A DNA stretch of 64,000 nucleotides from an uncultured Bacteroidales bacterium (GTDB taxonomy: Bacteria > Bacteroidota > Bacteroidia > Bacteroidales > VadinHA17): assembly GCA_963741935.1 (NCBI GenBank), contig CAVUJY010000011.1, positions 9,537 to 73,536 on the forward strand, given 5' to 3'. Numbering within the stretch: position 1 is the first letter of the stretch; every line of letters begins with the position of its first letter. Under the pieces are notes generated by a model, which searched no databases, was not told the origin of the DNA, and saw only the letters and a list, made by a program, of their open reading frames with translations. A program made the translations under genes and the position numbers. Shown in pieces: positions 7,036 through 53,544 of the stretch.

Positions 7036-7052
7036 CCCGAAAAAGAATTGTT

Positions 7053-15360: not shown

Positions 15361-15903
15361 ATGAGGAAGATTTGTAACTTTAATAATAGCAATGATCGTA
15401 TTTTCAGGTATGGCTTTTTCACAATCAAGGACAGTCTATCAAAATGGTTATCTTGTTAAGGTTGGAGATAAATCTCCTGATTTCACTATTAATGAAACAG
15501 GAGGAAAGTCATATAAACTCTCTGATCTTAAGGGGAAAGTAGTTATGCTCCAGTTTACTGCAAGCTGGTGCAGTGTATGTCGAAAAGAGATGCCGTTTAT
15601 TGAAAAGGAGATATGGATGGAGAAGAAAAACGATGGTCTGGTTGTTATCGGCATTGACAGGGATGAACCTGTTGATAAAGTAATCAGGTTTAAAAAAGAT
15701 ATTGCAGTAACATACCCTATGAGCTCTTGACCCCGGCGCAGATATATTTGGTCTTTATCGCCGAAAAGGAAGCAGGCGTTACCAGAAATGTAATTATTGA
15801 CCGCAACGGGAAAATTATTTTTCTCACGCGACTTTACGACCGCAGTGAATTTGATCAGATGAAAAAGGTGATTTTTGCAGAACTTGACACTGAAATAATC
15901 TGA
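15361..15903 (+). pseudogene. TlpA/redoxin-like thiol:disulfide oxidoreductase, about three frameshifts
   Basis: FTASWCSVCRKEMPFIEKE (CxxC) in ORF 15392-15730. ATG 15361 (MRKI) is in another frame. The 3' part reads ALDPGADIFGLY, then AEKEAGVTRNVIIDRNGKIIF, in two further frames and ends at TGA 15901-15903. Confidence 0.7.
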
Positions 15904-16025
15904 CAATATATACGTTATATGCACTGAGATCGTTAAACATAAACTTTTTGTCTTGAATAATGTTCTATTAATTGATTCTTTACGAATACTTTTACAGAAC
16001 TTTACTTTTAACCATAAAAACAAAA

Positions 16026-16662
16026 ATGATGAAAAAACTATTTGCAGTAATCCTTATTGTATTTATAGCAATACCAGCCTTTTCCCAGATAAAATTTGGT
16101 ATAAAAGCAGGTGTAAGTACAACCAATTTATCAATGCCATCCGTAAAAACCGTTGAAACTGCCTCGACTTCATATTCTGTTGAAGCCCTTTCATCTGCAA
16201 AATATGGTTTTCATGGAGGCGCGTTTATGAGGGTAACACTTCTTGGTGTCTATGTTCAGCCTGAATTATTATTTACTAACAGAACAAGTGAATATACGGT
16301 TACAGAATTATCTAAGTCCATCTGTTGTAGTAAAACAAAAGTTTAATAAACTGGATATTCCTGTTATGGTAGGATTTAAGCTTGGTCCGCTTCGTCTGAA
16401 TGCAGGTCCTGCAGCTTCACTTCTTATTAATAGTCCCAAAGACCTTATTGATGATCCAAATTTAAAGAGCAATTACAGCAGAATGACAATTGGATATCAG
16501 GCAGGCGTAGGTATTGATATTCTGAAGACTCTGACATTTGATGTGCGTTACGAAGGAAGTCTTAAAAAATACCAGAATCAAATTGAAAACCTGACTGGTA
16601 CGAAATTCAATCTCGATGACAGACCAAATGCCTTCCTGTTTAGTTTGGGTTTGTTTTTCTAG
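16026..16662 (+). pseudogene. outer-membrane beta-barrel protein (PorT/OmpA-like barrel family), one frameshift
   Basis: MMKKLFAVILIVFIAIPAFSQIKFGIKAGV signal plus first strand. The C-terminal strand ends in an aromatic residue (AFLFSLGLFF). ORFs 15972-16346 and 16243-16662 overlap in different frames. Confidence 0.6.
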
Positions 16663-19444: not shown

Positions 19445-20102
19445 GCTGGTTACAGGTTACTAATCAGTGTCTAAAGTTTGGAGTGCCTAAAATGCCTAAA
19501 GTTAAATAGATTGAATCAGTTTGTTTTATAACCCGCGATGATATTTAAAGCTTGTAATACATTTTGATTGTTTTATATGGATGTATAAATAATAGATATC
19601 AGGATGACATGTGGCGTAATCGTCTATTTATCAGCCATACAAAAAATTACTGACAACAGGCTGACTGAAAGAGCGTTACATATATGAAAATTACCTATGG
19701 TGTCGAACCCTAATGCTTATAGTACACGATTTTACAACTTTATTCTCTATCACGGAAGAGGTCATCTGTTAAGGACAAGAATAGCAATCAATAAATGATT
19801 CGTTATAATGATTGGGAGATACCTTCAACAAAAATCTGCAAAAATAGTATAGTTAGAAAAGATGAGATGTAAGATTAAGGGTGCGACCAGGAGTTATTCA
19901 TATTATGCCGATTCGTGGCTTAAAAAAATAAAATGCCAGCTGGAACCGAATTTACAAGTATCTAATAATACTTAATTGGTCAAATTGTTAATCTGGTTAA
20001 CCGATATCATAAAATCTAATTTACTATTTTTGACAGTGCATTATTCTCTGGTCACTATTGTGGCATTTTAGTGATCATTCTGTTTGATATATTTTTTTGA
20101 CG

Positions 20103-20747
20103 ATGGAAAAACTGGATCTGATAAAAGAAGCATTTCCTTTCCTGGAGAAGGAACTGATTGCTGAAATAGATAGTGTTTCAACATTTCAGGAGCTTAAGAC
20201 AAGCCAGAGCATTCTTGGTGAAGGTGATTATATAAAATCCTTTCCAATGGTGCTTAAAGGCTGCCTGCGTGTTGTACGACTTTCAGAAGATGGAAATGAA
20301 CTGCTTTTATATTATCTCAATAAAGGCGAGATATGCAGTATGTCGCTGACTTGTTGTATGTCGCTGCAGAAGAGTAATATTATAATGATAGCTGAGGAAA
20401 ATTCATCAATTATAACTATACCTGTAAATAAACCGGAGAAATGGATGACTGAATTTAAATCATGGAAAGAGTTCATGATGAATTCATATCGTCAGCGATT
20501 TGAAGAATTGCTTGAAACAATTGATTCAATAGCGTTTACAAAGCTTGATGACCGGATAATAAGGTTTTTCGAAGAGCGTTACAAATCCACCGGACAAAGT
20601 ACTTTTATCGGAACACATGCAGATATTGCCGAACAGCTTAATACATCACGGGAAGTGGTAAGCCGTCTTTTGCGCCATCTTGAGCTCCAGGATCTGGTTC
20701 GGACTGACAGAAACAGGGTAGATTATTCCATGTTAATAAAGAAATAG
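20103..20747 (+). CDS. Crp/Fnr family transcriptional regulator
   Basis: cNMP-binding-like beta-roll, then a C-terminal HTH (IAEQLNTSREVVSRLLRHLELQDLV). ATG 20103 is preferred to the TTG at 20097. Confidence 0.85.
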   Translation: MEKLDLIKEAFPFLEKELIAEIDSVSTFQELKTSQSILGEGDYIKSFPMVLKGCLRVVRLSEDGNELLLYYLNKGEICSMSLTCCMSLQKSNIIMIAEENSSIITIPVNKPEKWMTEFKSWKEFMMNSYRQRFEELLETIDSIAFTKLDDRIIRFFEERYKSTGQSTFIGTHADIAEQLNTSREVVSRLLRHLELQDLVRTDRNRVDYSMLIKK

Positions 20748-21544: not shown

Positions 21545-23040
21545 ATGTCAATCAATCGCAGGAATTTTCTTAAGGCCACTACACTTGCCGGTGCAGGTAC
21601 AATGGCCGGAGGGCTTATTTCGGGATGTGCTCCTAAACAACCTGAATCAAATCTGGCTGGAATTCTTGAATCAGTTAAAAAGATCCATTCCCAGAAATTT
21701 AATATGTCAGGATATGCAGCGCCTGCTCTGCCTATGGTTAGAATTGGGATTATCGGATTAGGTGACAGGGGAAGTGGTGCAGTTGAAAGACTGTCTTATA
21801 TCGAGGGTGTTGAGATCACAGCAATCGGAGATCTTCGTAAAGTAGCTGTAGACGGTTCTCAGAAATATCTTAAAAGTGTAGGCAGACCTGAAGCACGGGA
21901 GTTTTTTGGTGATGATAATGCCTGGAAGAAATTAGTTGAGCTGACAGATCTTGATCTGATTTATATATGTACGCCATGGGTATGGCATACCCCTATGGCA
22001 GTATATGCTATGGAAAATGGGAAACATGTAGCATGCGAAGTACCTATTGCACGGACGATTGATGAAGCATGGCAACTTGTTGAAACCTCTGAAAAAACCA
22101 AAAAGCATTGTATGATGCTTGAAAACTGCTGTTATGATTTCTTTGAATTATTAACATTAAATATGGCACGGCAGGGGATGTTTGGCGAGATTATTCATGG
22201 TGAAGGAGCTTATATTCATAATCTTATGGGATATAACTTCAAAAAGCCTCTCGATGATAAGCAAACTGATGGTGCCTACACAGGTATGTGGCGCCTTAAA
22301 GAAAATGCAACACGTAACGGAAACCTTTATCCTACACATGGATTGGGACCTATATGCCAGGCACTGAATATCAACTGGGGTGATAAAATGGAGTATCTTT
22401 CTTCAGTGTCAACATAACGATTTTACAATGGGACCAAAAGAGAAAGAGCTGGTTGCACAGGATGCATTCTATGATCCCTGGAAAGATTCTAAATTCAGGG
22501 GTAACATGAACACTACAATAATTAAGACATCGTACTTGGAAAGACAATAATGGTCCAGCACGATGTGTCATCAATGCATCCATATTCAAGAATTCATCTT
22601 GTTAAGGGAACTAAAGGAATGGCGCGAAAATATCCGGAAGAACTTATCGCTTTGGTGAAACAGTGGGTTGATGATGACCAGAACTGAAAGAACTATATGA
22701 TAAGTATACCCCTGAAATAGTAAAGAGAGTTGGAGAGATGGCAAAAGAAGTAGGTGGTCATGGCGGTATGGATTTTATAATGGACTGGAGATTAATAGAT
22801 TGTCTCAGGAATGGACTGCCTCTCGATCAGAATGTCTATGATGGAGCCCTCTGGAGCTCTGTCGCACCTCTAAGTGAATGGTCGGTAGCCAACAGATCCC
22901 AGTCAATTGATGTTCCTGACTTTACAGGCGGTTCGTGGAAAACCAATAAACCTCATGGAATTAATCTTGAAACAGGAGGCACCACTAAGGTACTTGATAT
23001 AGCAGAAGCAAGGGAAAAAATGCAATTGAACGTTAAGTAA
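21545..23040 (+). pseudogene. GH109-type NAD-dependent glycosidase (Gfo/Idh/MocA fold, TAT signal), three frameshifts
   Basis: TAT motif NRRNFLKATTLAGAG and Rossmann VRIGIIGLGDRGS. The C-terminal [45 protein letters not shown] is characteristic of GH109 alpha-N-acetylgalactosaminidases. Middle pieces (HNDFTMGPKEKEL..., GKTIMVQHDVSSMHPYSRIHLVKGTKG..., [15 protein letters not shown]) lie in shifted frames between 22400 and 22740. Confidence 0.8.
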
Positions 23041-23187: not shown

Positions 23188-25209
23188 ATGGTATCAGGGG
23201 GTAGCGAATTAATTGGTTTGCTTTTTAGTGCATATTTATTATTCTTATTATCGGGTACTTTATTATTACCTTTCATTCCTGTTCGTCATAAAGCAACGAT
23301 TAGCATCATTCTTGTTTTTCTGATTGCAGTATTGACCAGTGCTTTAGCCTTTAAAGCTTTAGCCTGGGGAGCTATTGAAATTCAGATAAACGGCGGACTG
23401 TTTTTTGGTATTATACCATTAAGAATTGATTCCCTTACTGCTTTTTTTATCCTTATTATCAATTTTACAGCAATTACAGGCGTACTTTACGGAACAGGTT
23501 ATCTGAAATCTGTCGCTGTCAGACCTTCAGTTATATCACTGCACTGGATATTATATATCTTGTTTCATTCTTCAATGCTTGCTGTTACTATGGTTCAGCA
23601 CAGCATCGTATTTCTTATTGCATGGGAGATAATGTCACTGTCATCCCTTTTTCTTGTGGTATTTGAGCATGAAAATCCAAAAGTGCTGAAGGCAGGAATT
23701 AACTATTTGGTGCAGATGCATATAAGTGTGGTTTTTCTGACTGTGGGATTTATTTGGGTTTATTTTAAGACCGGTACATTCGACTTCAGAGGAATATCCT
23801 CATTTTTTAGTTCAAATGACAATATCTGGTTGTTTCTTGTATTCTTTCTTGGATTTGGTCTGAAAGCCGGATTTGTTGGACTGCACACATGGTTGCCAAA
23901 AGCTCATCCTGCTGCTCCGTCACACATTTCAGGCGTGATGTCAGGCGTAATAGTTAAGATGGGTATCTATGGCATTTTTCGAATAATATCTTATCTTAAA
24001 TCAGATTTTCTGATTATCGGGGAAATTGTGCTGTCCGTTTCCTTAATGACTGGTTTGTTCGGGATAATGAATGCTGCAGTGCATCGCGATTTTAAGAAGC
24101 TTCTGGCATACTGTACGATCGAGAATATTGGCATTATCGGAATAGGAATTGGTATCGGATTAATCGGTATTTCAAAAGGGCAGAGTTTGCTTTGTTTTCT
24201 TGGTTTCGGCGGGGCACTGGTTCATGTACTTAACCATTCATTATTTAAATCGTTGCTTTTTTATTCTGCAGGATCGGTATACAAACAAACCCATACCCGG
24301 GATATGGATAAACTGGGAGGGTTGATAAAGGTGATGCCATCCACTGCACTTTTCTTCCTTATTGGTTCAATTGCAATTGGAGGGATTCCTCCTTTTAATG
24401 GCTTTATATCGGAATTTCTTATCTATTCAGGAATAATTCATGGTATTAATACAGCTGGTATTTCACAGCTTACATTAATGATAATAACCTTCGCAGGAAT
24501 GAGTATAATCGGAGGTGTGTCAATTATTACTTTTACAAAAACCTTCGGTACTATCTTTCTTGGTAATGCCCGACAGAGAAGTAATCACAAACCGGTTGAA
24601 GTCTCATTTATAATGTTATTGCCACAATATCTGATAGTATGCCTGATGATTCTCATTTCTGTTTTCCCGGGTTATGTTATTCAAATTATGACAACAGTTC
24701 TGAATACATTCAGATTCCCGGGAATTAATATGTTTACTGCCGAATCGGAAAGATACATATTCATTATGCAGAATATAAGCATTACATCATTGCTATTCAT
24801 AGCTTTATCAGGAATCTTATTTTTTGTGCGATATACCTTTATCAGGGGAAAAGAGCAAAAAATCTCCTCAACATGGGGATGTGGCTATGTAAATCCAAAC
24901 ACTCATATGCAGTATACCGGAAAATCATATTCAAAGTCTTTCGGTAAGCTATTGAATTTTATGCTTATAGAGAAAAAAAGATATGAAGAAATCGACAGAA
25001 ATGATACATTCCCTGAAACGAGAAAATACAGTTCCTTTTATCTCGATGTAATAGAAAACAAGATAATTGATCCGATTATTCAATTGATTACATACATTAC
25101 CAACAAATTCCAGTTCATACAAAATGGTAAAGTTCAGGCTTATGTTATTTACGGAATTGTCTTTATATTAACAATATTTATATTAACAGTTTTAACTCTG
25201 ATTAATTGA
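23188..25209 (+). CDS. HyfB-like antiporter-type membrane subunit (NuoL/M/N superfamily), copy 1
   Basis: 673 aa, polytopic. WEIMSLSSLFLVVFEH and LHTWLPKAHPAAPSHISGVMSGVIVKMGIYG are typical of hydrogenase-4 component B. Confidence 0.85.
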   Translation: MVSGGSELIGLLFSAYLLFLLSGTLLLPFIPVRHKATISIILVFLIAVLTSALAFKALAWGAIEIQINGGLFFGIIPLRIDSLTAFFILIINFTAITGVLYGTGYLKSVAVRPSVISLHWILYILFHSSMLAVTMVQHSIVFLIAWEIMSLSSLFLVVFEHENPKVLKAGINYLVQMHISVVFLTVGFIWVYFKTGTFDFRGISSFFSSNDNIWLFLVFFLGFGLKAGFVGLHTWLPKAHPAAPSHISGVMSGVIVKMGIYGIFRIISYLKSDFLIIGEIVLSVSLMTGLFGIMNAAVHRDFKKLLAYCTIENIGIIGIGIGIGLIGISKGQSLLCFLGFGGALVHVLNHSLFKSLLFYSAGSVYKQTHTRDMDKLGGLIKVMPSTALFFLIGSIAIGGIPPFNGFISEFLIYSGIIHGINTAGISQLTLMIITFAGMSIIGGVSIITFTKTFGTIFLGNARQRSNHKPVEVSFIMLLPQYLIVCLMILISVFPGYVIQIMTTVLNTFRFPGINMFTAESERYIFIMQNISITSLLFIALSGILFFVRYTFIRGKEQKISSTWGCGYVNPNTHMQYTGKSYSKSFGKLLNFMLIEKKRYEEIDRNDTFPETRKYSSFYLDVIENKIIDPIIQLITYITNKFQFIQNGKVQAYVIYGIVFILTIFILTVLTLIN

Positions 25210-27229
25210 TTAATGCCTTGATATTCATAGTGCTGATTGCTGTTTTGGCAATACTGCTGGTAAAAACAACAGTAAAGGGAATTATCGCGGTTTCAGCCGT
25301 GGTAATAATCGGTTTACTGACAAGCTTTATTGCATTTAGAGCACTCATGGGAACAAACTATGATGTTGTATTAACCGGTACCATCATGTTTGGGAAAGTC
25401 CGCATCCTTATTGATGCACTTTCAGCATGGTTTATTCTGACCATAAATTTTACACTTATTACCGGTGCTATTTATGGTTTTAATTATATGAAGATGTACA
25501 GTGACCGTAAGAGCGAGATTACTCTTCATTGTATTGCCTACATTCTTATCCAGGTTGCCTTACTTGGGATCTGTTCAGTTCAGAATGGTTTCATTTTCCT
25601 TTTATTCTGGGAACTTATGGCTCTGTCTGTTTTTATTCTGGTGATTTTCGAACATGAAAAGCCAGATACAATTAAAGCCGGAATAAACTACCTGATTCAG
25701 TCACATATCAGTATTGTTTTTTTAATGCTTGGATTTATCTATGTGGCATTCAAAAATGGCGGTTACGGCTTTGATTCTATTTCAGAATTTTCATCTCATC
25801 AATCCACACTTGCCGGAACTGCACTCTTTCTCTGTTTTTTTGTTGGTTTTGCAATCAAATCCGGTTTCGTGCCCTTTCATACCTGGTTGCCATATGCACA
25901 TCCTGCTGCACCTGCTCATATCTCAGGTATAATGTCAGGTGTTCTGATAAAAATAGGGATCTATGGCATTTTAAGGATGTTGTTGCTGATAAAAACAGAC
26001 TATACAACAATTGGGTATATTATCCTTATAGTTTCAGTTATAACCGGATTGTATGGAGTTATGCTGGCTATAATACAGCATGACCTTAAGAAACTCCTGG
26101 CATACCATAGCATTGAAAATATCGGAATTATAGGAATCGGTATCGGTATTGGCTGCATTGGACTTGGAGATACCAACAAATGGATGACTATTCTGGGGTT
26201 TTCCGGTGCTCTTGCTTCATACTTTAAATCACTCATTATTTAAATCATTGCTGTTCTATAGTGCAGGTAATGTTTATCAGGCTGCTCACACTCTTAATAT
26301 TGAAAGGTTGGGTGGATTAATAAAGAGAATGCCAAAGACTGCAATTTTGTTTCTGGTAGCTGCGATAGCTATCTGCGGACTTCCACCGTTGAATGGTTTT
26401 ATTTCAGAATTCATGATATATGCAGGAATTTACAACTGGCTTTTCAGCGCCAGTTTGATTTCACTGATTGCTATAATATTTGCTCTTGTAGGACTTGTCC
26501 TGATAGGAGGTTTGGCGATTCTTTGTTTTACAAAAGCTTTCAGCGTTGTATTTTTAGGAAAATCAAGGGATATTCCTGAAGGAAATATAAAAGAAACAGG
26601 GTTCTGGCAATTGCTTCCTATGTATATGACGGTAACATTAATGATAATTATCGGATTGTTTCCTTCCGTTTTTATAAGTGCTTTGCAAACTCCGGTTAAT
26701 CTGTTTACACATCATATCGTATTTAATCTTAATCTTATTAAAGTAAGTGCCATTGATTCTCTTCAGATTATCAGCTGGCTGTTCATGGTATTTATATTGG
26801 TAGTAGCAGGATTGATGATATTAAAAAAACTGGTTCAAAGGAACAGGCTCATTGTAAAAGGACCAACATGGGGATGCGGATATAATGCAGCTGGTTCCAA
26901 AGTCCAGTATACAGCCGGCTCATTTGTCAAAAGCTACTCGAAGCTTGCCAAGCCATTTCTGAAAATTGAGAAATCAGGTGATGATGTTGATAAGGTATTT
27001 CCATCACTAAAACATTATTATACACGAGTCTTATGATAAGCTTGAACATATTCTTATTGATAAACCACTGAAGCTGATGTACAGGATTATTGATCTTTTT
27101 AAATTCATACAGAATGGCCATTTGCAGAGATATATTCTTTATGGAATAATATTTATTACCGCTGTGCTTTGTGTCCCTCTGATTATTGATAAGATATTGA
27201 CACTTATTCATTTCTTAAATAATTTGTAA
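25206..27229 (+). pseudogene. HyfB-like antiporter-type membrane subunit, copy 2, two frameshifts
   Basis: Paralog of the upstream gene (WELMALSVFILVIFEH; FHTWLPYAHPAAPAHISGIMSGVLIKIGIYG). Shift 1 is near 26211-26216: GAL, then LHTLNHSLFKSLLFYSAG. Shift 2 is near 27030: the C-terminus KLEHILIDKPLKLMYRIIDLFKFIQNGHLQRYILYGIIF aligns with the copy-1 C-terminus. It ends at TAA 27227-27229. The TTG start overlaps the copy-1 stop (TTGA). Confidence 0.8.
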
Positions 27230-27232
27230 AAA

Positions 27233-28138
27233 ATGTTAAGTCTGATTTTAATATTACTAACCAGCTTGTTCTTTACAGGTATTATTCTGAGAACCAAAAG
27301 CATAGCTTCGGGACGAAAAGGTCCGGGTATAATGCAGCCGCTGAAGGATGTAGTTAAGCTTTTCAGGAAAGGCTCAGTTTATAGTGATACCACAAGTATC
27401 ATTTTCCAGATTGCCCCAACCATTTACTTTACATCTGTGTTCATGGCATGTCTGGTTGTTCCGTTTGGCTCTTACAAAGGTATCGTAAGCTTTGATGGCG
27501 ACTTTATTTTCTTTGCATATATACTGGCATTGGGCAAGTTCTTCAGTATTATTTCAGCCATGGATACAGGCAGTAGTTTTGAAGGCATGGGAGCAAGCCG
27601 CGAGGCATTATATTCAATGTTTGCTGAACCTGCTTTCTTTATACTCATCGGTTCATTTGCACTTCTTACTGGCAATACATCATTCTATGATATCTTTTCT
27701 ACCTTGCATCTTGGCTCTTCAATAACCTACACTTTGGGAGGTCTGGCAGCATTTGTGCTTATAATGATATCAATGATTGAGAACAGCAGGATGCCTGTGG
27801 ATGATCCAAAGACACATCTGGAGCTAACTATGATACATGAAGTTATGATTCTTGATAATAGCGGCTTTGATTTTGGATTAATCCTTTCAGCCGGATATCT
27901 GAAGTTTGCAATGTACGGAGCATTAATTGCAGATTTTTTTATAGGTGGATTATCACTGATCTGGGCCATTCCTGTCTTTTTGATAATTCAGCTGGCTTAT
28001 GCAGTAATGGTAGGTCTTATTGAATCTTTTATGGCACGATTCAGAATGAGCCATAACCCACAGTTTATTCTTGCTCTATCATCCGTCAGTTTTCTGATAT
28101 TTCTTGGAGTATTACTTGTTTTGGAAAAATTTGTATAA
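27233..28138 (+). CDS. HyfC/HycD-like (NuoH family) membrane subunit
   Basis: 301 aa, polytopic. N-terminal GRKGPGIMQPLKDVVKLFRKG is typical of formate hydrogenlyase subunit 4 and NuoH. Confidence 0.85.
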   Translation: MLSLILILLTSLFFTGIILRTKSIASGRKGPGIMQPLKDVVKLFRKGSVYSDTTSIIFQIAPTIYFTSVFMACLVVPFGSYKGIVSFDGDFIFFAYILALGKFFSIISAMDTGSSFEGMGASREALYSMFAEPAFFILIGSFALLTGNTSFYDIFSTLHLGSSITYTLGGLAAFVLIMISMIENSRMPVDDPKTHLELTMIHEVMILDNSGFDFGLILSAGYLKFAMYGALIADFFIGGLSLIWAIPVFLIIQLAYAVMVGLIESFMARFRMSHNPQFILALSSVSFLIFLGVLLVLEKFV

Positions 28139-28149
28139 AACATCTGAAG

Positions 28150-28782
28150 ATGACAAATGTACTGTTGATTATATTTATTATAAGTCTTTTATATGTTGCG
28201 ATTGCGAACAGGATCATAACATATGTGAGGGTACTTGCATTACAGGGCTTTATCCTTTTTGCAGTGGCCTTTCTTCAATTGCAGGATATAAAGACGTGGA
28301 ATCTGATTCTCATTCTTCTTGAAACAATTGTTTTTAAAGCTCTGGCAGTTCCATTCTTTTTAAGCTATCTTATTAAGAGAAATAAAATTACCCGTGAATC
28401 TGAGCCATATCTTCCGCATTTTATATCACTGATTATAGTTACTCTGATTGTGGTAATTACAATACTGTTAGCTAATTCAGTCCATGACGCAAATCTTGAT
28501 AAGATTTTCTTTATAGTATCGCTATCGACTCTCTTTACGGGTTTATACTTCATAGCTTCAAGGAAAAAGATTATAACACATGTTATGGGATATCTCATGA
28601 TTGAGAATGGGGTATTTGTTCTTTCTCTTGCAGTTGGTAATGAGATGCCAAACCTGGTTAATCTTGGTATTATGCTTGATGTATTTGCAAGTGTTCTTAT
28701 TCTGGGCATCTTCCTTAATAAGATCGGCGATGTATTTAAAGATGCGGATGTTGACCAGCTAAGTAATTTGAAAGACTATTAA
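28150..28782 (+). CDS. HyfE-like small membrane subunit
   Basis: 210 aa with about 6 TM helices. Size and position (between the NuoH-like and NuoN-like genes) match hydrogenase-4 component E. MIENGVFVLSLAVG resembles NuoK/HyfE. Confidence 0.7.
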   Translation: MTNVLLIIFIISLLYVAIANRIITYVRVLALQGFILFAVAFLQLQDIKTWNLILILLETIVFKALAVPFFLSYLIKRNKITRESEPYLPHFISLIIVTLIVVITILLANSVHDANLDKIFFIVSLSTLFTGLYFIASRKKIITHVMGYLMIENGVFVLSLAVGNEMPNLVNLGIMLDVFASVLILGIFLNKIGDVFKDADVDQLSNLKDY

Positions 28783-28790
28783 TCGAGGAA

Positions 28791-30222
28791 ATGATGACAG
28801 GGATTTATCTTATTTGCTCTTTTGTTCTTGCAGGATTTATTTTCCTGAACAGGAAAACCTTAATAAATAACATATTAATTGTTGCTTTTGGAATATTGCA
28901 GACTGCATTCACAGTATATGCAGTAATGAACTATAGGTCAGGTTCTCTTGAATATTTCACATTTGATGCTCTGGGTTTACTTCTTCTCATGACTTTGAGT
29001 ATTGTTACTATTCCTGCTTTGCTTCATAGTTATCTTTATATTAAGAGACATAATGAGACACCGCAATCGCGTTCAATATATTTTGCAGCACTTGTTGTCC
29101 TTATTACTTCTATTACAGCTGCTTATCTGGCAAATCAGATTGCTGTTATCTGGATATTTGCTGAAATGACCACCTTGTCTGCATCTATGCTTATATACCA
29201 TCACCGCAACAAGCTGGCTCTTGAAGGCACCTGGAAGTATGTTTTCATTTGCGCAATAAGCTTAACTTTTGTCTTTATTGGCATATTATTTCTGAGCCTT
29301 TCTCTTCGCAATTCAGGATCTGATGATTTGTCATTCAGTAATCTTCTGTTATATAAGGATAAGCTCAACCCTTTTTGGTTAAGGCTGGCTTTCCTCTTTA
29401 TTTTCACAGGATTTACAGCCAAGATGGGACTGGTTCCAATGTACACAGCCGGTATTGATGCAAAAGATAAAGCACCTGCTCCTGTGGGTGCCTTACTGGC
29501 AAGTGTTTTGATGAACATGGGCTTTGTTGCTATATTCAGATTTTACATTGTTATTGCACAGACATCTCTTTTTCACTGGGCCAACCTCATAATTTTTGTA
29601 TCGGCAATTCTTTCGGTTTTAGTGGCTACTGTCTATATGACCAAGGTTATGAATATTAAGAGAATGTTAGCCTATTCAGGAATAGAACATATGGGCATTG
29701 TAATGCTTGGTGTCGCTGCCGGCGGTATTGGTTATTATGCGGCTGTACTGCATATAATACTTCACACTTTTGTAAAATCAGGATTGTTTTTTCAGTATAA
29801 CCAGCTATACAGAGTATTTCAGAGCAAAAGTATTCATCAGGCAGGCAATTATTTTAAATATAATCCAGCCGGTGCAATTGTTTTACTATTTGGCTTTATT
29901 AGTGCCACTGCTATGCCTCCATCTGGCTTGTTTGTTAGCGAATTTTTGATCTTCAGGTCGCTTTTTGAGAGCAGTCATCTGATTATACTGGTACTGGTAT
30001 TGATACTGCTTACCATTGTTATATGGGCATTTGGTAAAAATATATTTAAAATATTGTTTGTTCCGGTTCCCGGGTTTGATGAATCAAAAGTGCCTAGTTA
30101 TAAGCCCATGGGAATCATTAACTCAATATATACTTATGTTTTCGGCAATCTGGCTTGGTCTGAATCCTCCTGATGTTTTTGTTCAGATGATACAGGAGGC
30201 AGTTAAAATTTTACCTAACTAA
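28791..30222 (+). CDS. HyfF-like antiporter-type membrane subunit (NuoN-like), 3' frameshift
   Basis: Polytopic, with FTAKMGLVPMYTAGIDAKDKAPAPVGALLASVLMNMG and MLAYSGIEHMG. The as-read ORF stops at 30173. An overlapping frame (30016-30222; WESLTQYILMFSAIWLGLNPP...) ends 1 nt before the next ATG, so that is probably the true C-terminus. The shift is near 30070-30110. Confidence 0.8.
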
Positions 30223-30223
30223 T

Positions 30224-31726
30224 ATGAATGTTTTAGCAATAACTAATCATCAGTCAGTTCCGGTAGAAGAAATTCCGGTTTTGGAGTATAAATCCTTTAT
30301 GGAGATGCAACACTTCATTACTCGAAGATCATCCTGAACGACACTGTGTCTGTTATTTTGGTTATCGTTCAGGTAATATTGTGCATCTTATTTGTTGTAT
30401 AGCCGATGATAATCAGCATAATATAATGGTTTCTTCATCCATAGTTGAAGAAAACTCCAGTTCTGGATTCCTTCACTTCCAAAAATCTTGCATTTGAGAA
30501 ATTTGAACGTGAGATTCATGAGAATTTCGGTATTTCTTATTCTGATCATCCATGGCTGAAGCCGGTTAGGTATTCTGAAAACAGATCCGATAAGGGTCAG
30601 AATATTGCTGATTACCCGTTTTATAATATTGAAAGCGAGGAGCTTCATGAAGTAGGAGTGGGGCCTGTGCATGCCGGTATCATTGAACCCGGGCATTTCA
30701 GGTTTATTTGTAATGGGGAGCAGATTTTGCATCTTGAAATTCAACTGGGATTTCAGCATCGGGGAGTAGAACAGTTGTTCCTGGATAAAACTAAACTGAT
30801 TCAGCGAACAATTCTTGCTGAATCGATTGCCGGAGATAGTGTTATCGAACATAATTCAGCTTTTTCATATCTGATGGAAAGTCTGGGTGGAGTAGAAATT
30901 GGTAAGAGATGTTCTTTATGCCAGAACAATAGCCCAGGAGATAGAACGTATTGCAATTCATACCGGTGACCTGAGTGCAATATGTACTGATATTGCTTAC
31001 CAGCTTGGAAGTTCAGTTCTGGGAAGATTAAGAACACCTGTAATTAATTTTTTTCAGGAATGGTGTGGAAACAGACTTGCCAAAGGACTGATAAGAACCG
31101 GGTATAATCCATATCCATTTACTAATGCGCTGGCTGAAAGGTTATTAATGATTCTGGATGCATTTGAACCGGATTTTATTGAGATAAACAGTGAACTTTC
31201 CACTTTGCCAAGTACCTTATCGCGGTTTGAGAGAACAGGTACCTTATCTTATGACCAGCTTCTATCGATTGGTACCGTAGGTATGTCTGCAAGAATGAAC
31301 GCTCTGGAAAGGGATATACGAAAATCTCATCCTTATGGATTATATTCTGAATTAGACCATATTCCCGTAATAAAACATCATGGCGATGTATATTCAAGAG
31401 TACAGATAAGAAAGGAAGAGGTACTGCAGTCAATATCATATCTCAGACAGTTGCTGAAGAGTTTGCCAGAGCCTGGTAATACCGGCTCTGTTGGTATCTC
31501 TATGACTCCCTCTGCCTTTTCAGTTTCTCTGACCGAAGGATGGAGAGGAGAGATTTGTCATGCCGCCATAACCAATGAAAAAGGAGAACTTATAGTGTAT
31601 AAAATAAAAGATCCGTCTTTTCATAACTGGCTGGCTCTTGCCCTGAGTGTAAGAAATAATGAGATATCAGATTTTCCGGTATGCAATAAAAGCTTTGATC
31701 TGTCATATTGTGGTCATGATCTGTAA
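30224..31726 (+). pseudogene. HycE/HyfG-like NuoC-NuoD fusion (hydrogenase large-subunit homolog) lacking NiFe cysteine ligands, three frameshifts
   Basis: NuoC-like EREIHENFGISYSDHPWLKP. NuoD/HycE-like GPVHAGIIEPGHFRF...LGFQHRGVEQL. It has AESIAGDSVIEH where HycE has DRVCGICGFAH, and ends SFDLSYCGHDL where HycE has SLDPCYSCTDR. Frame changes are near 30300-30335, 30440 and 30900. Confidence 0.8.
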
Positions 31727-31745
31727 ACCTGAAACGCTATAGAAT

Positions 31746-32495
31746 ATGCTTAATACTTTAAAAATACTTCAACATCAGGGAAAACAATATATTCCGGACC
31801 TTAGAAATGCCAAAGTTCCTGGTATATTCAGGGGTCGTCCTGAAATTAGTCTGGAAACAGTTGATACCAGGGCTTTAATGGATGTCTGTCCCACAGATGC
31901 AATATATACAGATCCTGTCAGGATAGATCTTGGAAAATGTACTTTCTGTGGAGAATGTGCAAGATTATTTCCTTCGAAGATCCGTTTTACAACAGACTTT
32001 AAGCTCTCCTCGAATGACAGGGCAAGGCTTATTATATCCGAAGGATCTGTTAGTCCGGTAGAAATTGACCCGGCCAAAGTAAGGAAGGAGATCAGGAAAA
32101 TATTTGGTGGTTCACTCAAGCTAAGGCAGGTGTCGGCTGGAGGAGACAACAGTTGTGAACTTGAATTAAATGCTGCGGGCAATGTGAACTTTGATATGGG
32201 ACGTTATGGAATTGAGTTTGTAGCTTCTCCACGACATGCAGATGGAATTGTAATCACAGGTCCTGTTTCAAGAAATATGGCAGAACCACTTCAGATAACC
32301 TATGATGCCATACCTTCACCTAAACTAATAATACTTGTTGGTACTGATGCAATCAGTGGTGGAATATTTCAGGGAAGCCCTGCAATCGACAGAAAATTTA
32401 TTGAAGAAAACCATATCGATCTCTATATTCCCGGGAATCCGGTTCATCCTCTGACCTTTATAAATGGAATAATGGATTTGCTGGGTATTAAGTAA
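31746..32495 (+). CDS. NuoB/HycG-like small subunit with an N-terminal half-ferredoxin, proximal-cluster ligands mostly lost
   Basis: FVASPRHADGIVITGPVS and GTDAISGGIF are NuoB-family motifs. It reads VSAGGDNSCELE instead of DCGGCNGCEIE, GTDA instead of GACG, and PGNPVHP instead of PGCPPTP. The N-terminus has CPTDAI and CTFCGECARLFP. Confidence 0.8.
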   Translation: MLNTLKILQHQGKQYIPDLRNAKVPGIFRGRPEISLETVDTRALMDVCPTDAIYTDPVRIDLGKCTFCGECARLFPSKIRFTTDFKLSSNDRARLIISEGSVSPVEIDPAKVRKEIRKIFGGSLKLRQVSAGGDNSCELELNAAGNVNFDMGRYGIEFVASPRHADGIVITGPVSRNMAEPLQITYDAIPSPKLIILVGTDAISGGIFQGSPAIDRKFIEENHIDLYIPGNPVHPLTFINGIMDLLGIK

Positions 32496-34341: not shown

Positions 34342-35050
34342 TTATTTTGCCATTGCTTCAGCTTTTAATGCCGGGGGCATCTTTTCAATTGAATATCTTA
34401 GAGCTGTCCTTGGCATTGTTGATTTATTCCTGATTACATATTCATACACTTCCTGCTGATGTGCCTGGCTGGCAGCTTTTAGCATCCAGCCATATCCTTT
34501 CTGTACCATGTCGTCCTTGTCAGAATGCAGAATATCAGCTATATCAAAGATATCGTTTAAAAATTGTCCATTACGGGCAGGAACTATTAATGATACGGCA
34601 GCGGCTCGTTTTACCCACCGATTATCAGATGTTGCCCATTTTTTCAACCCTGAAATAAGATAAGGATACATTTCAACTATAGTTCCTACTGTATGATTAC
34701 AAAGAGTATCGCACGATGCCCAGTTTCCTACATAGTTGTTTACCCATTTCTCAAAAATTTCAAAATCGCCAGGCTGGTATTCATTTCCTTAAATTATAAG
34801 ACCAGTTGCATGCAACAAATGATTCTTCCATTATGCCTGATTTCCATAAAGAATCGCATAAAGAAAATATTTTGGATTTGTTTTTGTCCTCCAGCATTTT
34901 ATAATGATCCTTACTTATCCGGATAACCACTGCCGACTTGATACCATACATTTTTACTGCTTCTTTGAAGAATCTTTCTCCTGATAATTTTGTTTTTTCA
35001 TCAGCATTTCTGATCAATTCCTTTCTTAAATTTTCTATAATATTTGCCAT
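34342..35050 (-). pseudogene. DNA alkylation repair protein (AlkD-like HEAT repeats), one frameshift
   Basis: N-terminal ORF 34781-35050 (LRKELIRNADEKTKLSGERFFKE) and C-terminal ORF 34342-34671 (RWVKRAAAVSLIVPARNG...KGYGWMLKAAS). The linking segment EYQPGDFEIFEKWVNNYVGNWASCDTLCNH can be read in a shifted frame around 34680-34790. Confidence 0.75.
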
Positions 35051-35219
35051 GACAATTTTTTGCTTTATGATGAGGCTCAGAATATAAAAATCTAAACAAA
35101 GTTAAACCCATATTTTCAGTATATTGAGTTCTCTTTAAAAATCTTTGCTGAAAATACTTATTAAAGCTTCTGTCTTTTTAATAAATTAGCGTCGTATTAA
35201 TTAAATGCATTTTGCTGAC

Positions 35220-37278
35220 ATGAAACACTTGCCAAAACGTTTAATCCTGATCCTTATGATAATTTTAGGTCTTGACGCATGTAAAAATGAGAAACAACCA
35301 GATCCTGTAGCTGCTGATGATTTTAAATATTTTGTTGAACAGTTTGAAGATATCAGGGTTCTTAAGTATAAAGTTCCCGGTTTTGAATCTCTCTCTTTGC
35401 AACAGAAAAAATATATATACTACCTGAGTCAGGCAGCTTTATCCGGAAGAGATATTCTCTGGGATCAAAATTTCAAATACAACCTTCTTATCAGAAAAAC
35501 AATTGAGACGGTAATTGATAGTTATACCGGAGATAAGGAAGATCCTGAATATAAGTTGTTTCTTGTTTATGCAAAGCGTGTTTTCTTTGCAAACGGAATC
35601 CATCATCACTATTCAAGTGATAAGTTTAAACCCGGATTTCCGGAAGCTTATTTTGCTACCCTTTTAAAAGGAAGCGATAAATTGAAACTGCCATTGGCCA
35701 AAGGTCAGACTGTTGACCAGCTTATTAAATTTCTGACTCCTGTTTTGTTTGATGAAAACCTTTATGCCCGAAAAGTAGAACAGCGTGAAGGTTATGATCT
35801 TGTTGCCGGATCTGCCTCAAATTTTTATGAAGGAGTTACACAAAAAGAGGCCGAAGATTTTTATGCCGGGAAAACTGATCCGAAGAATACCCAGCCAGTT
35901 TCTATAGGACTTAACTCAAAGCTTGTGAAAAAAGACGGCAAGATAACTGAAGAGGTTTATAAATCAGGTGGACTATACGGACCTGCTATTGATAAAATAA
36001 TCTACTGGCTTGAGAAAGCAATTCCTGAGGCAGAAACTGAAACTCAAAAAACTGAATTAAAGCTCTTGATTGATTATTACAAAACCGGTGACCTTAAAAA
36101 ATGGGATGAGTATAATGTGGCATGGGCTCAAAATACTGAATCTATGGTAGATTATATCAATGGTTTTATTGAGAATTATGAAGATCCTATGGGAATGAAA
36201 GCTACCTGGGAAGCCATTGTTGATTATACAGATATTGAAGCTTCCAAAAGAACAGCAATAATTACTGCAAATGCACAATGGTTTGAAGATAATTCACCTA
36301 TTCAGCCTAAATACAGAAAAGAAAAGGTTACTGGTGTTGCTGCCAAGGTGATAGATATTGCAATGCTTGGAGGCGACTGCTTTCCTGCTTCTCCGTTGGG
36401 TATAAACCTGCCAAATGCTGACTGGATAAGGAAAGAGGTTGGTTCAAAATCAGTAACTCTGGCAAATATTACAAATGCCTATAACATAGCCTCGCAGGGA
36501 AATGGTTTTCTTGAAGAATTTGCTGCCAGTCCTGCCGAAGTGGAGCGGGTTAAAAAATATGGAGCAATTTCAGATGCTTTACATACCGACCTGCATGAAT
36601 GTGTTGGACATGCAAGCGGAAAACTTGCAGAAGGAACAGATCCTAATGCACTTAAGAACTATTCATCAACGCTTGAGGAGGCAAGAGCTGATCTGTTCGC
36701 ACTTTATTATATGATGGATAAAAAGATAATTAAAGCTTGGCCTCTTGCCAGACATGGAAGCTGCTGAAGCTGCTTATGATTCATACCTGCGTAACGGATT
36801 GCTTACACAGATTGTAAGGATCAAACCCGGCAAAGATATTGAAGAAGCACATATGCGCAACAGGGCCCTCATTAGTCGTTGGGTATTTGAAAAAGGAAAA
36901 GCGGATAATGTAGTTGAGTTTTTTAAAAGGGACGGTAAAACCTATGTAAAGATTAATGATTATAAAAAGCTAAGGATTCTTTTCGGTGATTTATTAAAGG
37001 AGATTCAGCGAATTAAGTCGGAAGGCGATTTTGCTGCAGGTAAAAAATTAGTTGAAGATTATGGTGTGAAGATTGATCCTCAGTTGCATACAGAAATACT
37101 TGCCAGGTATGAAAAACTTAACCTGGCTCCATATACAGGGTTTGTTAATCCTTATATATTTGCTTCAGTTAATATGGATGGAGATATTGTTGATATAAAA
37201 CTCAGCTATATAGATGATTATCTGAGTGAAATGATGTTTTACGGGAAAAATTATTCTTTTCTTCCTGTAAATAACTGA
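35220..37278 (+). pseudogene. dipeptidyl-peptidase III (M49 family) lipoprotein, one frameshift
   Basis: Lipobox LILMIILGLDAC. Zinc motifs HECVGH and EEARADL. ORFs 35205-36767 and 36745-37278 overlap in different frames. The total of about 685 aa fits bacteroidetal DPP III. Confidence 0.8.
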
Positions 37279-47007: not shown

Positions 47008-48537
47008 ATGAAAAGGACAAGTCATAAAACAACCAACAAAAAAGAGATCTCCCGCAGGAGTTTTGTGAAAACAGCTGCTGCAGGTGCTGCTGCAATGACT
47101 ATACTGCCAAATTTTACAATTAGCGGACTGGGACATGTTGCTCCAAGCGATAAGTTACTTATTGCTGCTGTAGGCTGTGGCGGAGAGGGGGCTGATGATA
47201 TACGCCATTATTCGATAGCGCCGAAAAAGAATGCTGAAATAGCTTTCCTTTGTGATGTAGACGACAGGATGGCGGCACCCAGAAGAAAAGAATTTCCAAA
47301 AGCAAAGTTCTATTACGACTGGCGTGAAATGTTCGATAAGGAGAGTAAAAACTTTGATGCTGTATCTGTTGCAATACCTGATCACAATCATGCTATTGTC
47401 GGGCTAAGTGCCATGCAGCTTAATAAACATCTTTATCTTCAAAAACCTCTTACTCACGATATTTATGAAGCCCGTATTCTGACACAGGCTGCTGAAAAAT
47501 ACAAGGTGGTTACCCAGATGGGGGACCAGGGTGCTTCATGCGACGGTATGCGCACCCTTCGCGAATGGATTGAAGCAGACGTTCTTGGGGAAATTCAGAA
47601 GGTGTATTGCTGGACCGACAGACCAGTCTGGCCACAGGGAATACCCTGGCCATCAGACCAGTCCTGCTGTTCCTTCTGAACTGAAATGGGATCTCTGGTT
47701 AGGAACAGCCATGGAAACAAATTATATTGATAATATGGTTCCTTTCAACTGGCGTGGCTGGTGGAGGTTCGGTACCGGTGCTCTTGGAGATATGGGATGT
47801 CATATTATGGGACCTCCATTTAAGCTGCTCAAACTGGGATATCCTACTGAAGTATCAGGTAGTGCAAGCACACGTATACAGTGGAATTTTTGAGGAAGGA
47901 ATATATCCTGACAGCGGACCAGTATCCAGTTCAATTCGTTTTAAATATAAGCTGGACAATGGGAAGGATTTAGATCTTTACTGGATGGATGGTGGAATTA
48001 CCCCTGAACGTCCATCTGAAATTGACTCTGATCAGAATATGAATGAAGTGATGGCTGATTACCCTGGGTCTTAACGATTATGAAGGAGGTACTTTGTTTA
48101 TTGGAACAAAGGGAAAAGCAGCCTGCGGATGGGGTGGCCGTAATCCGATTCTTTTACCACTTTCCCATAATAAGGATGTAAATATTCCTCAAAAGTATGC
48201 AAGAGTTCCGGGAAATATGGATGGTCACTGGTGGCAGTGGATTGATGCATGCATAGCCGGATATGGAAATGCTGAAGTTGATTCTCCGTTTGTGGGTTAT
48301 GCAGGACCACTTACCGAAACTGTATTAATGGGTAACCTTTTACTGAGAAGCTTTAATATCCGGGAAAAAATTAAGAGAACCGACCCTGTTTATGGTGAGA
48401 TGGAGGGTTATACTTTTCCAGGAAGATACATAAACTATAAATGGGATGGTCCAAACATGAGAATTACAAACTTTGAACAGGCTAACCAGTTTGTTAAACG
48501 TGAGTACAGAAAAGGGTGGGGGGAGATAAAACTGTGA
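47008..48537 (+). pseudogene. TAT-exported Gfo/Idh/MocA family oxidoreductase, about three frameshifts
   Basis: TAT motif SRRSFVKTAAAGAAAM, Rossmann LLIAAVGCGGEG, and LYLQKPLTHDIYEAR. WRGWWRFGTGALGDMGCHIMGPP is in a second frame, and further pieces are in ORFs 47727-48074 and 48094-48537. Confidence 0.8.
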
Positions 48538-52040: not shown

Positions 52041-53544
52041 ATGAAAGAAGATTCAAAAAACATGACTCGTCGGAATTTTATTGGTACTACCGGTGCTGTT
52101 GCTGCAGGTTTGACTATACTTCCGAGCTCAGTTAGTCAGTGGTCTTGGCCACAAAGCTCCCAGCGACAAGCTGAATATAGCTGTTGTTGGTATTGGTGGT
52201 ATGGGTAATTCAAACCTTAAAGAATGTAAAACCAACAGAAAACATTGTAGCTCTCTGCGATGTTGACTGGGGTTATTCAAAAAAAGTATTTGAAGCAAAT
52301 CCAAATGCAAAAGCATACTGGGATTGGCGAAAAATGTATGATGAAATGGGTAAATCAATTGATGCAGTTATAGTTGCAACAGCTGACCATTCTCATGCAG
52401 TTGCAGCATCCAATGCAATCGCAATGGGCAAACATGTTTACTGTTCAAAAACCTCTTACACATACTGTTTATGAATCAAGGTTATTAACCAAACTGGCTA
52501 AGAAATACAAAGTGGCTACTCAGATGGGTAACCAGGGTTCTTCAGGCGAAGGTGTTAACCTAACTGTAGAATGGATGAATAATGGTGAAATCGGTGAAGT
52601 AAAAAAAGTAGAAGCATTTACCGACCGTCCGATCTGGCCTCAGGGACTGAATGTTCCTAAAGGTGAATGGGTTCCTGATACACTTAACTGGGATCTTTTT
52701 ATCGGACCTGCAAAAATGCGTCCCTATAACAGTATTTACACACCATGGAACTGGCGTGGCTGGTGGGATTTTGGAACAGGTGCACTTGGTGATATGGCTT
52801 GCCATATTATGCATCCGGTATTTATAGGTCTTAAATTACAGTATCCGATAAAAGCACAGGGAAGTTCAACACTTTTACTAACCGATTGTGCTCCAAATGC
52901 ACAGATGGTTACCCTTACTTATCCTGAAAGAGCTACACCAAAAGGATCAAAAATGAAATATCCTGAAGTTGAAGTTATCTGGTATGATGGTGGTTTACAG
53001 CCTCCAAAACCTGAAGGATGGCCTGCAGGAAAAAATATGAATGATAGTGGTGGCGGAGTTATTTTCCACGGAACAAAAGATACTCTTGTTTGTGGTTGTT
53101 ATGGTAAAGATCCATGGTTATTGTCAGGTCGTAAGCCTGTATGTTCCGAAAACTGAGCGAAGAGTTGAAAATGCAATGAACGGCGGTCATGAAATGGACT
53201 GGGTACGTGCATGTAAAGAAAGTCCTGAAAGCAGAGTTATGACAAAATCTGATTTCTCAGAAGCAGGTCCTTTCAACGAAATGGTTGTTATGGGTGTACT
53301 TGCTGTCAGACTTCAGGGTTTGAATAAAGAACTTGATTGGGATGGCGAAAAATATGGAATTTCACCAACATTATCAGATGATGATAAAGTAAGACTTACC
53401 ATTTCTGATAATTTCACAATAGTTGATGGTGATCCTAAATTTGACAGACCAAATATTACTCTGAATGCAAAGCAATTTGCAGCAGAGATGGTTAAACATA
53501 CCTACCGCAAAGGATTTGAACTGCCGGCTATGCCTTCAGTTTAA
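52041..53544 (+). pseudogene. TAT-exported Gfo/Idh/MocA family oxidoreductase (paralog of 47008-48537), at least four frameshifts
   Basis: MTRRNFIGTTGAVAAG (TAT) from ATG 52041. [16 protein letters not shown] is in a second frame. [26 protein letters not shown] and WRGWWDFGTGALGDMACHIMHP are in further frames. Confidence 0.8.

Follow-up and report, generated by a model that had tools for sequence, protein, structure and literature searches.

The Ehr (energy-converting- or Ech-hydrogenase-related) complexes are relatives of the group 4 [NiFe] hydrogenases that lack the ligands of the NiFe site; they occur in many phyla, and their role is described as 'still unknown' (PMC6349859, PMC4758237, PMC10284858, PMC7304191, 10.1101/765248). 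They were first described in Geobacter, where they are detected in proteomes and are more abundant on formate (PMC7894505), and interaction with oxidoreductases and quinones has been proposed for them (10.1101/765248, PMC6349859). The Ehr complex of Geobacter sulfurreducens (EhrA-1, EhrC, EhrL, EhrS, GSU0739-45) joins NuoL/Mrp-, NuoH- and HyfE-like membrane subunits to a NuoB-like small subunit (PMC6349859, PMC4758237, PMC10284858, PMC7894505), as does the locus considered here; the literature searched gave nothing usable on an Ehr of Bacteroidota. The locus lies in 64,000 nucleotides of DNA from an uncultured Bacteroidales bacterium of the VadinHA17 lineage (assembly GCA_963741935.1, contig CAVUJY010000011.1, positions 9,537 to 73,536 of the forward strand), a stretch called 'the window' below, and the gene in question encodes a homologue of hydrogenase large subunits with cysteine at none of the four NiFe-ligand positions.

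Taken as a whole, the gene is very probably the large subunit of an Ehr-type complex, a relative of group 4 [NiFe] hydrogenases and of complex I; the Ehr identity and the non-hydrogenase status of the complex are the parts of this explanation held with highest confidence. It shows every defining feature of Ehr that can be assessed here: homology to group 4 large subunits and NuoD; absence of both CxxC motifs; and clustering with Mrp/NuoL-, NuoH- and HyfE-like genes and a NuoB-like small subunit. It lacks those that define [NiFe] hydrogenases, NuoD/NuoB or Mrp. The absence of NiFe ligands is thus a rediscovery of the Ehr trait in a member of the Bacteroidota, the class having already been named. 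The gene and the two motifs are placed as follows.

30224-31726, plus strand: large subunit (EhrL-like, with fused NuoC and NuoD domains, HycE/HyfG-like), 499 amino acids (aa) after correction, in three frames as assembled.
30829-30840, plus strand: A-G-D-S instead of the N-terminal C-G-x-C NiFe motif (CGIC in HycE), from translation and alignment to HycE.
31697-31714, plus strand: D-L-S-Y-C-G instead of the C-terminal D-P-C-x-x-C NiFe motif (DPCYSC), from translation and alignment to HycE.

Homology of the protein to group 4 large subunits and to NuoD is clear. Pfam finds Complex1_30kDa and Complex1_49kDa on the fragments of its open reading frame (ORF); HMMER aligns it to HycE (PDB 7z0s_E) over residues 179-545 with E=2.5e-30, and to MbhL (6cfw_L) with 2e-29. 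In the HycE alignment, LAESIAGDSVIEH of the large subunit falls on LSDRVCGICGFAH of HycE, and SFDLSYC falls on SLDPCYS, so the four ligand positions are A202, S205, S493 and G496. Four residues follow DLSYCG, leaving the C-terminus without a cleavable extension. Much of this had been read correctly in a first-pass annotation of the window: the coordinates and residues of the two motifs are exact on translation, none of the four positions is cysteine, the nearby cysteines (in FPVC and YC) are out of register, and the surrounding scaffold motifs GPVHAGIIEPGHFRF, LGFQHRGVEQL and EIERIAIH are present. Its contention that the substitutions are not artefacts of frame choice also stands, as both the translations and the same motifs in orthologues show. 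Its description of a HycE/NuoD-like homologue was right as to ancestry; the named class, and the loss of cluster ligands in the small subunit described below, had gone unrecognised.

The fold agrees with the alignment. An AlphaFold2 model of an orthologue 77% identical to the window protein (P0008), computed from a diverse 77-sequence alignment, has a mean predicted local distance difference test score (pLDDT) of 94.7 (an input of 23 close homologues gave 61.6, and that model was discarded). Its top Foldseek match is HycE 7z0s_E, with a template-modelling (TM) score of 0.90 and a root-mean-square deviation of 2.7 Å, followed by E. coli NuoCD. As modelled, the HycE scaffold is fully retained despite the loss of the ligands.

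One might suppose that such a protein is nevertheless a working hydrogenase, or a complex-I-type quinone reductase, with non-canonical ligands or residues. The Hyf-like fold and operon, of the kind found in formate hydrogenlyase (FHL), speak for this, as do the identical gene order in a true hydrogenase locus of Planctomycetota (L084) and the public annotations of relatives, which read 'Ni,Fe-hydrogenase III large subunit' or 'NADH-quinone oxidoreductase subunit C'. A large subunit without all four ligand cysteines cannot be a [NiFe] hydrogenase, however, and we know of no [NiFe] enzyme with Ala/Ser/Ser/Gly at these positions; the nearby cysteines are variable, and the proximal cluster is absent. 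As for NuoD, the equivalog models score far below their cut-offs (NF004739, 133 bits against 360; TIGR01962, 112 against 459), and the column of the quinone-binding tyrosine holds Gly/Ala, in a register uncertain by one. A cryptic enzyme of either kind is hardly to be credited.

The substitutions belong to a family and not to one genome. The corrected protein has more than 8000 relatives, the top 120 of which are intact, about 499 aa long, 73-78% identical and mostly from metagenome-assembled genomes (MAGs) of Bacteroidota. The window's small subunit had no exact match in the assembly collection, and identity to the best relatives is just 74-77%. A scan of one genome per GTDB species found a stretch encoding a relative in at least 522 species genomes; 80 loci, nearly all from Bacteroidales or Bacteroidota, were retained from these stretches, and columns were counted in 79 full-length large subunits from separate Bacteroidota species genomes. 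The AGDS columns hold A72/T6/S1, G in all 79 (G203), D in all 79 (D204) and T44/S34/C1; the DLSYCG columns hold N51/D28, L79, S79, Y79, C61/S14/A4 and G79. CxxC occurs at neither motif in any of the 79. Because the substitutions recur in 79/79 orthologues of separate species, they are far beyond chance. Neither nearby cysteine can be an essential ligand, since both vary: Cys495 (of YC) is C61/S14/A4 and Cys486 (of FPVC) is C63/S12/I3/N1. The ratio of nonsynonymous to synonymous substitution rates (dN/dS; Nei-Gojobori NG86, 16 orthologue pairs with dS<1.5) lies between 0.03 and 0.12, with a median of 0.08; it describes the orthologue pairs, synonymous divergence between the window lineage and its nearest orthologue being saturated (pS 0.69-0.77). 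The two checks that the first-pass annotation had proposed, on orthologues and on dN/dS, thus come out in favour of its ligand claim, with A/S-G-D-S/T and (D/N)-L-S-Y-x-G in the Bacteroidota orthologues and a ratio near 0.08 that indicates purifying selection.

The trait extends further. Searched with a profile, 1.84 billion representatives at 50% identity yielded 4944 hits, 591 of them at E<=1e-30. CG[VA]C...LCY[SA]C is found in just 4 of the best 150 representatives, the remainder carrying x-G-D-[ST] and [ND]-L-S-Y-x-G-x-D-L; none of the 106 full-length Cys-less representatives has cysteine at more than one of the four ligand positions. Named members of this Cys-less family come from Bacteroidales, Acidobacteriota, Wallbacteria, Binatia and Thermodesulfovibrio. 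On sequence evidence, replacement of the ligands is a family trait, ancient and under purifying selection in Bacteroidota.

Three single-base frameshifts interrupt the gene as assembled, all on the plus strand:

30308, plus strand: frameshift 1, one extra C; its removal joins '...KSFMEM' to NTSLLEDHPERH, and the length then equals the orthologue consensus.
30453, plus strand: frameshift 2, one extra A in the run gaagaAAAct; its removal gives SSSIVEETPVLDSF, colinear with the orthologues.
30904, plus strand: frameshift 3, one extra A (ggtAAgag); its removal gives GGVEIGRDVLYARTIAQEIERIAIH.

The three had been noticed at first pass, and deleting one base at each position yields a 499-aa ORF with no internal stop, colinear with the orthologues. 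What does not hold is the suggestion that the gene is additionally decaying. A decaying pseudogene, in which a hydrogenase first lost its ligands and frameshifts are now destroying the gene in this lineage, would account for the three shifts, for the interruption of four of the seven operon genes, HyfB2 and HyfF among them, and for reduced remnants seen in some Bacteroidales (an orphan large subunit at L085; HyfF and the large subunit at L086). It would not account for the state of the protein: ligand loss is ancient and selected, being the same in 79 species at a dN/dS of about 0.08, and the corrected sequence matches 130/130 invariant and 196/196 columns conserved at 95% or more among the 79 orthologues, so that none of the 196 is broken. 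No genuine nonsense codon appears in homologue alignments of the shifted genes; the in-frame stops seen come from stretches read out of frame, overhangs at the ends of high-scoring segment pairs, one spurious antisense ORF and the stop codon that properly ends the small-subunit gene.

Nor are the shifts confined to this gene. Comparison by tblastn with intact proteins of syntenic loci finds at least 11 between 21.5 and 37.3 kb (about 16 kb, or about 0.7 per kb), of which a GH109-like oxidoreductase and the large subunit have three each, HyfB2 two, and HyfF, a DNA-alkylation-repair protein and an M49 peptidase one each, so that no fewer than five neighbours of the gene are affected. Those outside the large subunit lie near 22400-22680, 26200, 27025, 30100, 34783 and 36731. 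Nine of the 11 are one extra base, and the density in unrelated neighbours has the profile of a technical error; that every second gene should be freshly broken, with no degradation of amino acids, is implausible. One +1 and one -1 shift, separated by 130 nt, cancel each other out, so that the frame is regained, and an ORF-overlap scan of the plus strand scores 26/29 transitions as '+1'. Pfam shows further genes split elsewhere in the window (2-oxoacid:ferredoxin oxidoreductase, AhpC/TSA, GFO/IDH/MocA oxidoreductases and a C25 gingipain-like peptidase), and similar split genes occur in other long-read MAG loci (L004, L007, L009, L011). The whole window looks like an indel-rich assembly. As unrelated neighbouring genes are shifted too, no nonsense codon is present and no conserved residue is lost, the three shifts in the large subunit are most likely indel errors of assembly, a signal of data quality and not of biology; a pseudogene is highly improbable.

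Two other descriptions of the shifts were rejected. They are not all +1, as the GH109-like gene shows +1, -1 and -1; and programmed frameshifting does not fit so many sites, in unrelated genes, with no common motif. Split genes also include an outer-membrane beta-barrel protein and three GFO/IDH/MocA (GH109-like) oxidoreductases in all with twin-arginine translocation (TAT) signals. The regions concerned are 5424-7694, 15392-16662, 21545-23040, 25206-27229, 28791-30222, 34345-35050 (minus strand), 35205-37278, 47008-48537, 52374-53544 and 56139-59054 (minus strand).

The small subunit, encoded directly after the large one, has lost ligands of its own.

31746-32495, plus strand: small subunit, an N-terminal ferredoxin-like domain (HyfH/NuoI-type) fused to a NuoB/HycG-type domain, 249 aa; Pfam Oxidored_q6 (2.4e-20) and Fer4.
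31887-31958, plus strand: ligands of the single retained [4Fe-4S] cluster, C48 (CP) and C65-x2-C68-x2-C71, all four invariant in 77/77 orthologues.
32139-32438, plus strand: former proximal [4Fe-4S] site, GGDNSCELE, GTDAISGG and PGNPVHP, giving D134, C137, D201 and N231.

The protein aligns to MbhJ (6cfw_J) and HycG (7z0s_G). The columns that bind the proximal cluster, C/C/C/C in both, read D/C/D/N in the window, three of the four cysteines having been lost. The replacements are themselves conserved among 77 orthologues: D134 in 77/77, C137 in 65/77, D201 in 77/77 and N231 in 76/77. In a second clade of Bacteroidota (L087) none of the four cysteines is left, while the Ehr operons examined from Wallbacteria, Acidobacteriota and Binatia, like the true hydrogenase L084, retain the full set. 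Against NuoB/PSST chains, the N2 motif (CCxxE...C...CP) shows the same C to D, D and N changes, and the NuoB models score under their cut-offs.

The ferredoxin domain is reduced as well. L084 and the Ehr of an Acidobacteria locus (L082) have two full CxxCxxCxxxCP motifs; the Bacteroidota proteins lack the first three cysteines of motif 1 and the fourth of motif 2. In the standard wiring of 2x[4Fe-4S] ferredoxins, the 'CP' cysteine of motif 1 and the CxxCxxC of motif 2 are the ligands of one and the same cluster. Because the retained cysteines are exactly the ligands of one cluster in that wiring, the Bacteroidota complex is predicted to hold one isolated [4Fe-4S] cluster, with neither a NiFe site nor any cluster at the membrane-arm interface. 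No description of the loss of the proximal cluster together with retention of one ferredoxin cluster was found in the literature searched; part of it may already be in the primary Ehr papers, and it is not claimed as new.

Pfam and NCBIfam place the large subunit as gene 6 of a seven-gene Hyf-type operon at 23188-32495, in the order HyfB1, HyfB2, HyfC, HyfE, HyfF, large subunit, small subunit. The five membrane genes are the following.

23188-25209, plus strand: HyfB/NuoL-type antiporter-like subunit 1 (HyfB1), 673 aa, the first gene; Pfam Proton_antipo_M 1.3e-54.
25206-27229, plus strand: HyfB-type antiporter-like subunit 2 (HyfB2), in three frames, with shifts near 26200-26240 and near 27025.
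27233-28138, plus strand: HyfC/NuoH-type membrane subunit, 301 aa; Pfam NADHdh 9.3e-36; 86-90% identity to orthologues.
28150-28782, plus strand: HyfE-type (NuoK-like) membrane subunit, 210 aa; NCBIfam 'hydrogenase 4 membrane subunit' 2.1e-21, under the cut-off; about 90% identity to orthologues.
28791-30222, plus strand: HyfF/NuoN-type antiporter-like subunit, with one frameshift near 30070-30107 and its stop at 30220-30222.

HyfB1, whose best NCBIfam match is 'hydrogenase 4 subunit B' (under the cut-off), aligns to HycC (7z0s_C) and MbhH (6cfw_H). For HyfB2, tblastn with intact 675-aa orthologues recovers residues 3-350, 333-608 and 609-675 in frames 3, 1 and 2, and positions 5-198 and 202-285 of Pfam Proton_antipo_M fall on two separate ORFs; for HyfF, residues 1-439 are in frame 3 and 427-475 in frame 1. 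The residues checked in these subunits, the Glu of transmembrane helix 5, the Lys of helix 7, the His and the Lys of helix 12, are essentially invariant across orthologues: E147, K226, H233 and K354 of HyfB1 in all of 46, with H240 in 44/46; E138, H227, H234 and K348 of HyfB2 in all of 57; and K210 of HyfF in all of 71. Most of the 80 loci have the seven-gene order, with near-fixed lengths of 301/210/475/499/250 aa from HyfC to the small subunit. Across Bacteroidota, strong purifying selection keeps the entire operon conserved.

Comparison with known systems shows where the complex came from and what it has given up. E. coli hydrogenase 4 and formate hydrogenlyase (Hyf/Hyc, PDB 7Z0S) have the same HyfB-C-E-F-G order followed by the small subunit, and the HycE fold returned at TM 0.90; the best NCBIfam matches of the membrane subunits are Hyf B, E and F. 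L084, the nearest relative found that is a true group 4 [NiFe] hydrogenase, has the same gene order and a ferredoxin-fused small subunit, which argues that the complex derives from a Hyf-type group 4 enzyme. Unlike Hyf and L084, it has no NiFe ligands and no proximal cluster, its small subunit having lost the four-cysteine site, and it has one ferredoxin cluster in place of two; unlike Hyf, it has neither HyfA nor a partner formate dehydrogenase, and maturation genes are not conserved in its neighbourhood. No Hyp maturation family of Pfam was found in the gene calls of loci L081-L087, which cover the loci and not the whole genomes.

Complex I (NuoC/NuoD/NuoB; E. coli NuoCD, PDB 7P61, 7Z7R) offers a fused NuoC-NuoD without NiFe, and homologous core modules. 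It keeps the N2 cluster in NuoB and the quinone site in NuoD, whereas here the equivalents of the N2 ligands are gone and there is no NuoEFG module. Within Ehr, the Bacteroidota clade differs from the others in having two HyfB paralogues, hence seven genes, and from the examined Ehr operons of Wallbacteria, Acidobacteriota and Binatia in a small subunit without proximal ligands and with one ferredoxin-type cluster. The Pyrococcus MBS/MBX complex (PDB 6U8Y), a respiratory complex, likewise descends from a hydrogenase and has a large subunit that has ceased to make H2. The match of our large subunit to MbsL is weak (2.3e-11). The MBS structure reportedly contains three [4Fe-4S] clusters, the proximal one being catalytic; the small subunit here differs in having no ligands for a proximal cluster.

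The Mrp antiporters (PDB 6Z16, 7QRU) share with the complex their MrpA/MrpD-like subunits and the conserved Glu, Lys and His residues; HyfB1 matches MrpA chains at 1e-33 to 1e-34. They lack a hydrogenase-derived cap, and Pfam and NCBIfam give no MrpB, C, E, F or G matches in the operon, where NuoH-, NuoC/D- and NuoB-like genes are found instead. Mrp is the nearest model for working without redox chemistry: by analogy, the complex may work like Mrp, without being a member.

The preferred way to understand this combination is to place the function in the membrane arm. With no chain of clusters leading to the subunit interface, conventional redox coupling there would most likely be absent; the complex would most likely be an ion-translocating, Mrp-like H+/cation membrane machine, independent of redox reactions, and its hydrogenase-derived cap would be structural or regulatory, the lone [4Fe-4S] cluster possibly acting as a redox sensor. 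A translocator of this kind is suggested because there is no cluster chain and no conserved redox partner, and because the membrane arm is intact and strongly selected; as a mechanistic step argued from gene content and alignments, it is put forward tentatively. Stated more broadly, and with the same reserve, Bacteroidota Ehr may have given up electron transfer to the membrane interface, to become either a redox-sensing or ligand-gated cation/proton translocator or the holder of a new, non-cysteine metal site in the pocket formed by D/D/N and G-D-S/T.

The absence of a redox partner is a matter of the flanking genes. Even the commonest flanking family is found at 21 or fewer of the 80 loci, so that no oxidoreductase qualifies as a conserved partner. 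Recurrent families (gamma-glutamyltranspeptidase, DNA-alkylation-repair protein, M49 peptidase) are mostly on the opposite strand and reflect the synteny of close relatives.

Several points weigh against the explanation as a whole. The antiporter and regulatory-cap mechanism is argued from what is missing. The strict conservation of D204, D134, D201 and N231, together with one [4Fe-4S] site, argues that the interface does something specific, and it could bind another metal or a substrate. In a neighbour-joining tree of 112 sequences the Cys-less proteins form one clade with a bootstrap of just 8/30, so a single ancestral loss of the NiFe ligands is not established. Finally, there is a small chance that the frameshifts are real and very recent.

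The conserved interface leads to a different proposal, in which the complex is an ion pump driven by redox chemistry at a new catalytic site: ferredoxin would donate electrons, which would pass through the single [4Fe-4S] cluster to a substrate or a new metal centre in the old NiFe/proximal pocket. That pocket would be lined by D134, C137, D201 and N231 of the small subunit and E199, D204, H209, C444, H445, H497 and D498 of the large one. The replacement residues are conserved as catalytic ones would be (D204 in 79/79, D134 and D201 in 77/77, N231 in 76/77, C444 and H445 in 78-79 of 79), almost all of the wider Cys-less family has G-D, retention of one FeS cluster is strict, and dN/dS is 0.08; the proposed interaction of Ehr with oxidoreductases and quinones (10.1101/765248, PMC6349859) also fits. 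Yet the 80 loci show no oxidoreductase gene conserved as a flanking partner; with the proximal cluster lost, no relay is evident that would link the interface to the ferredoxin-like domain; C137, the last cysteine of the proximal site, is replaced in 12 of 77 orthologues; and Asp, Asn and Ser are also what one would expect if a buried metal site had merely been refilled with polar residues. Such a pump, with the pocket assigned to it, seems rather unlikely, but it is the main rival of the Mrp-like account.

Upstream of the operon lie a CRP/FNR-family regulator (20097-20747) and the TAT-signal GFO/IDH/MocA-GH109-like oxidoreductase already mentioned (21545-23040). The pair is common only to the closest relatives (e.g. 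L002, L012, L018, L021, L026); a regulatory link between the CRP/FNR regulator and the operon is possible, in an arrangement that is not conserved across the family. A scan of the operon for sigma-70 promoters and terminators gave counts at chance level, Bacteroidota promoters being outside the coverage of the model. The 64-kb window contains no tRNA genes, and no Rfam families at the gathering threshold.

Some of the other loci depart from the common arrangement. Two (L005 and L009) have a divergent second pair of HyfB-like and HyfC/NuoH-like genes beside the Ehr operon, upstream and on the minus strand, which may be part of another complex-I-like or Mrp-like cluster. In some Bacteroidales a Cys-less large-subunit gene stands alone directly after mutS (L085:9001-10503), with no membrane or small-subunit genes within 9 kb, and in a Mucinivorans MAG just a HyfF-like gene and the large subunit are left (L086:6538-9400); these are either operon remnants or signs of a role for the large subunit outside the complex. 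The Bacteroidales-type operon is also found on contigs labelled Chloroflexota (L010, 75% identity) and Acidobacteriota (L057, 66%), the former with the same gamma-glutamyltranspeptidase neighbour as in Bacteroidales loci; both contigs are probably mis-binned in their MAGs.

The finding is useful for annotation and sharpens the question of Ehr function, and will be no surprise to the specialist. Surveys that count hydrogenase or NADH-quinone oxidoreductase labels would wrongly credit many Bacteroidota with H2 metabolism or with an extra complex I; the pair x-G-D-[ST] and [ND]-L-S-Y-x-G-x-D-L provides a simple filter against such misannotation. The role of Ehr is open (10.1101/765248, PMC10284858), and a clade that lacks the proximal cluster as well narrows the options, arguing against a conventional redox-driven pump. 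If ions are translocated with no redox reaction at the interface, the complex would be a natural experiment on the complex-I-type coupling module; and should either the redox-dead translocator or the non-cysteine metal site prove true, these bacteria would provide a naturally occurring 'redox-dead' form of the complex I coupling machinery.

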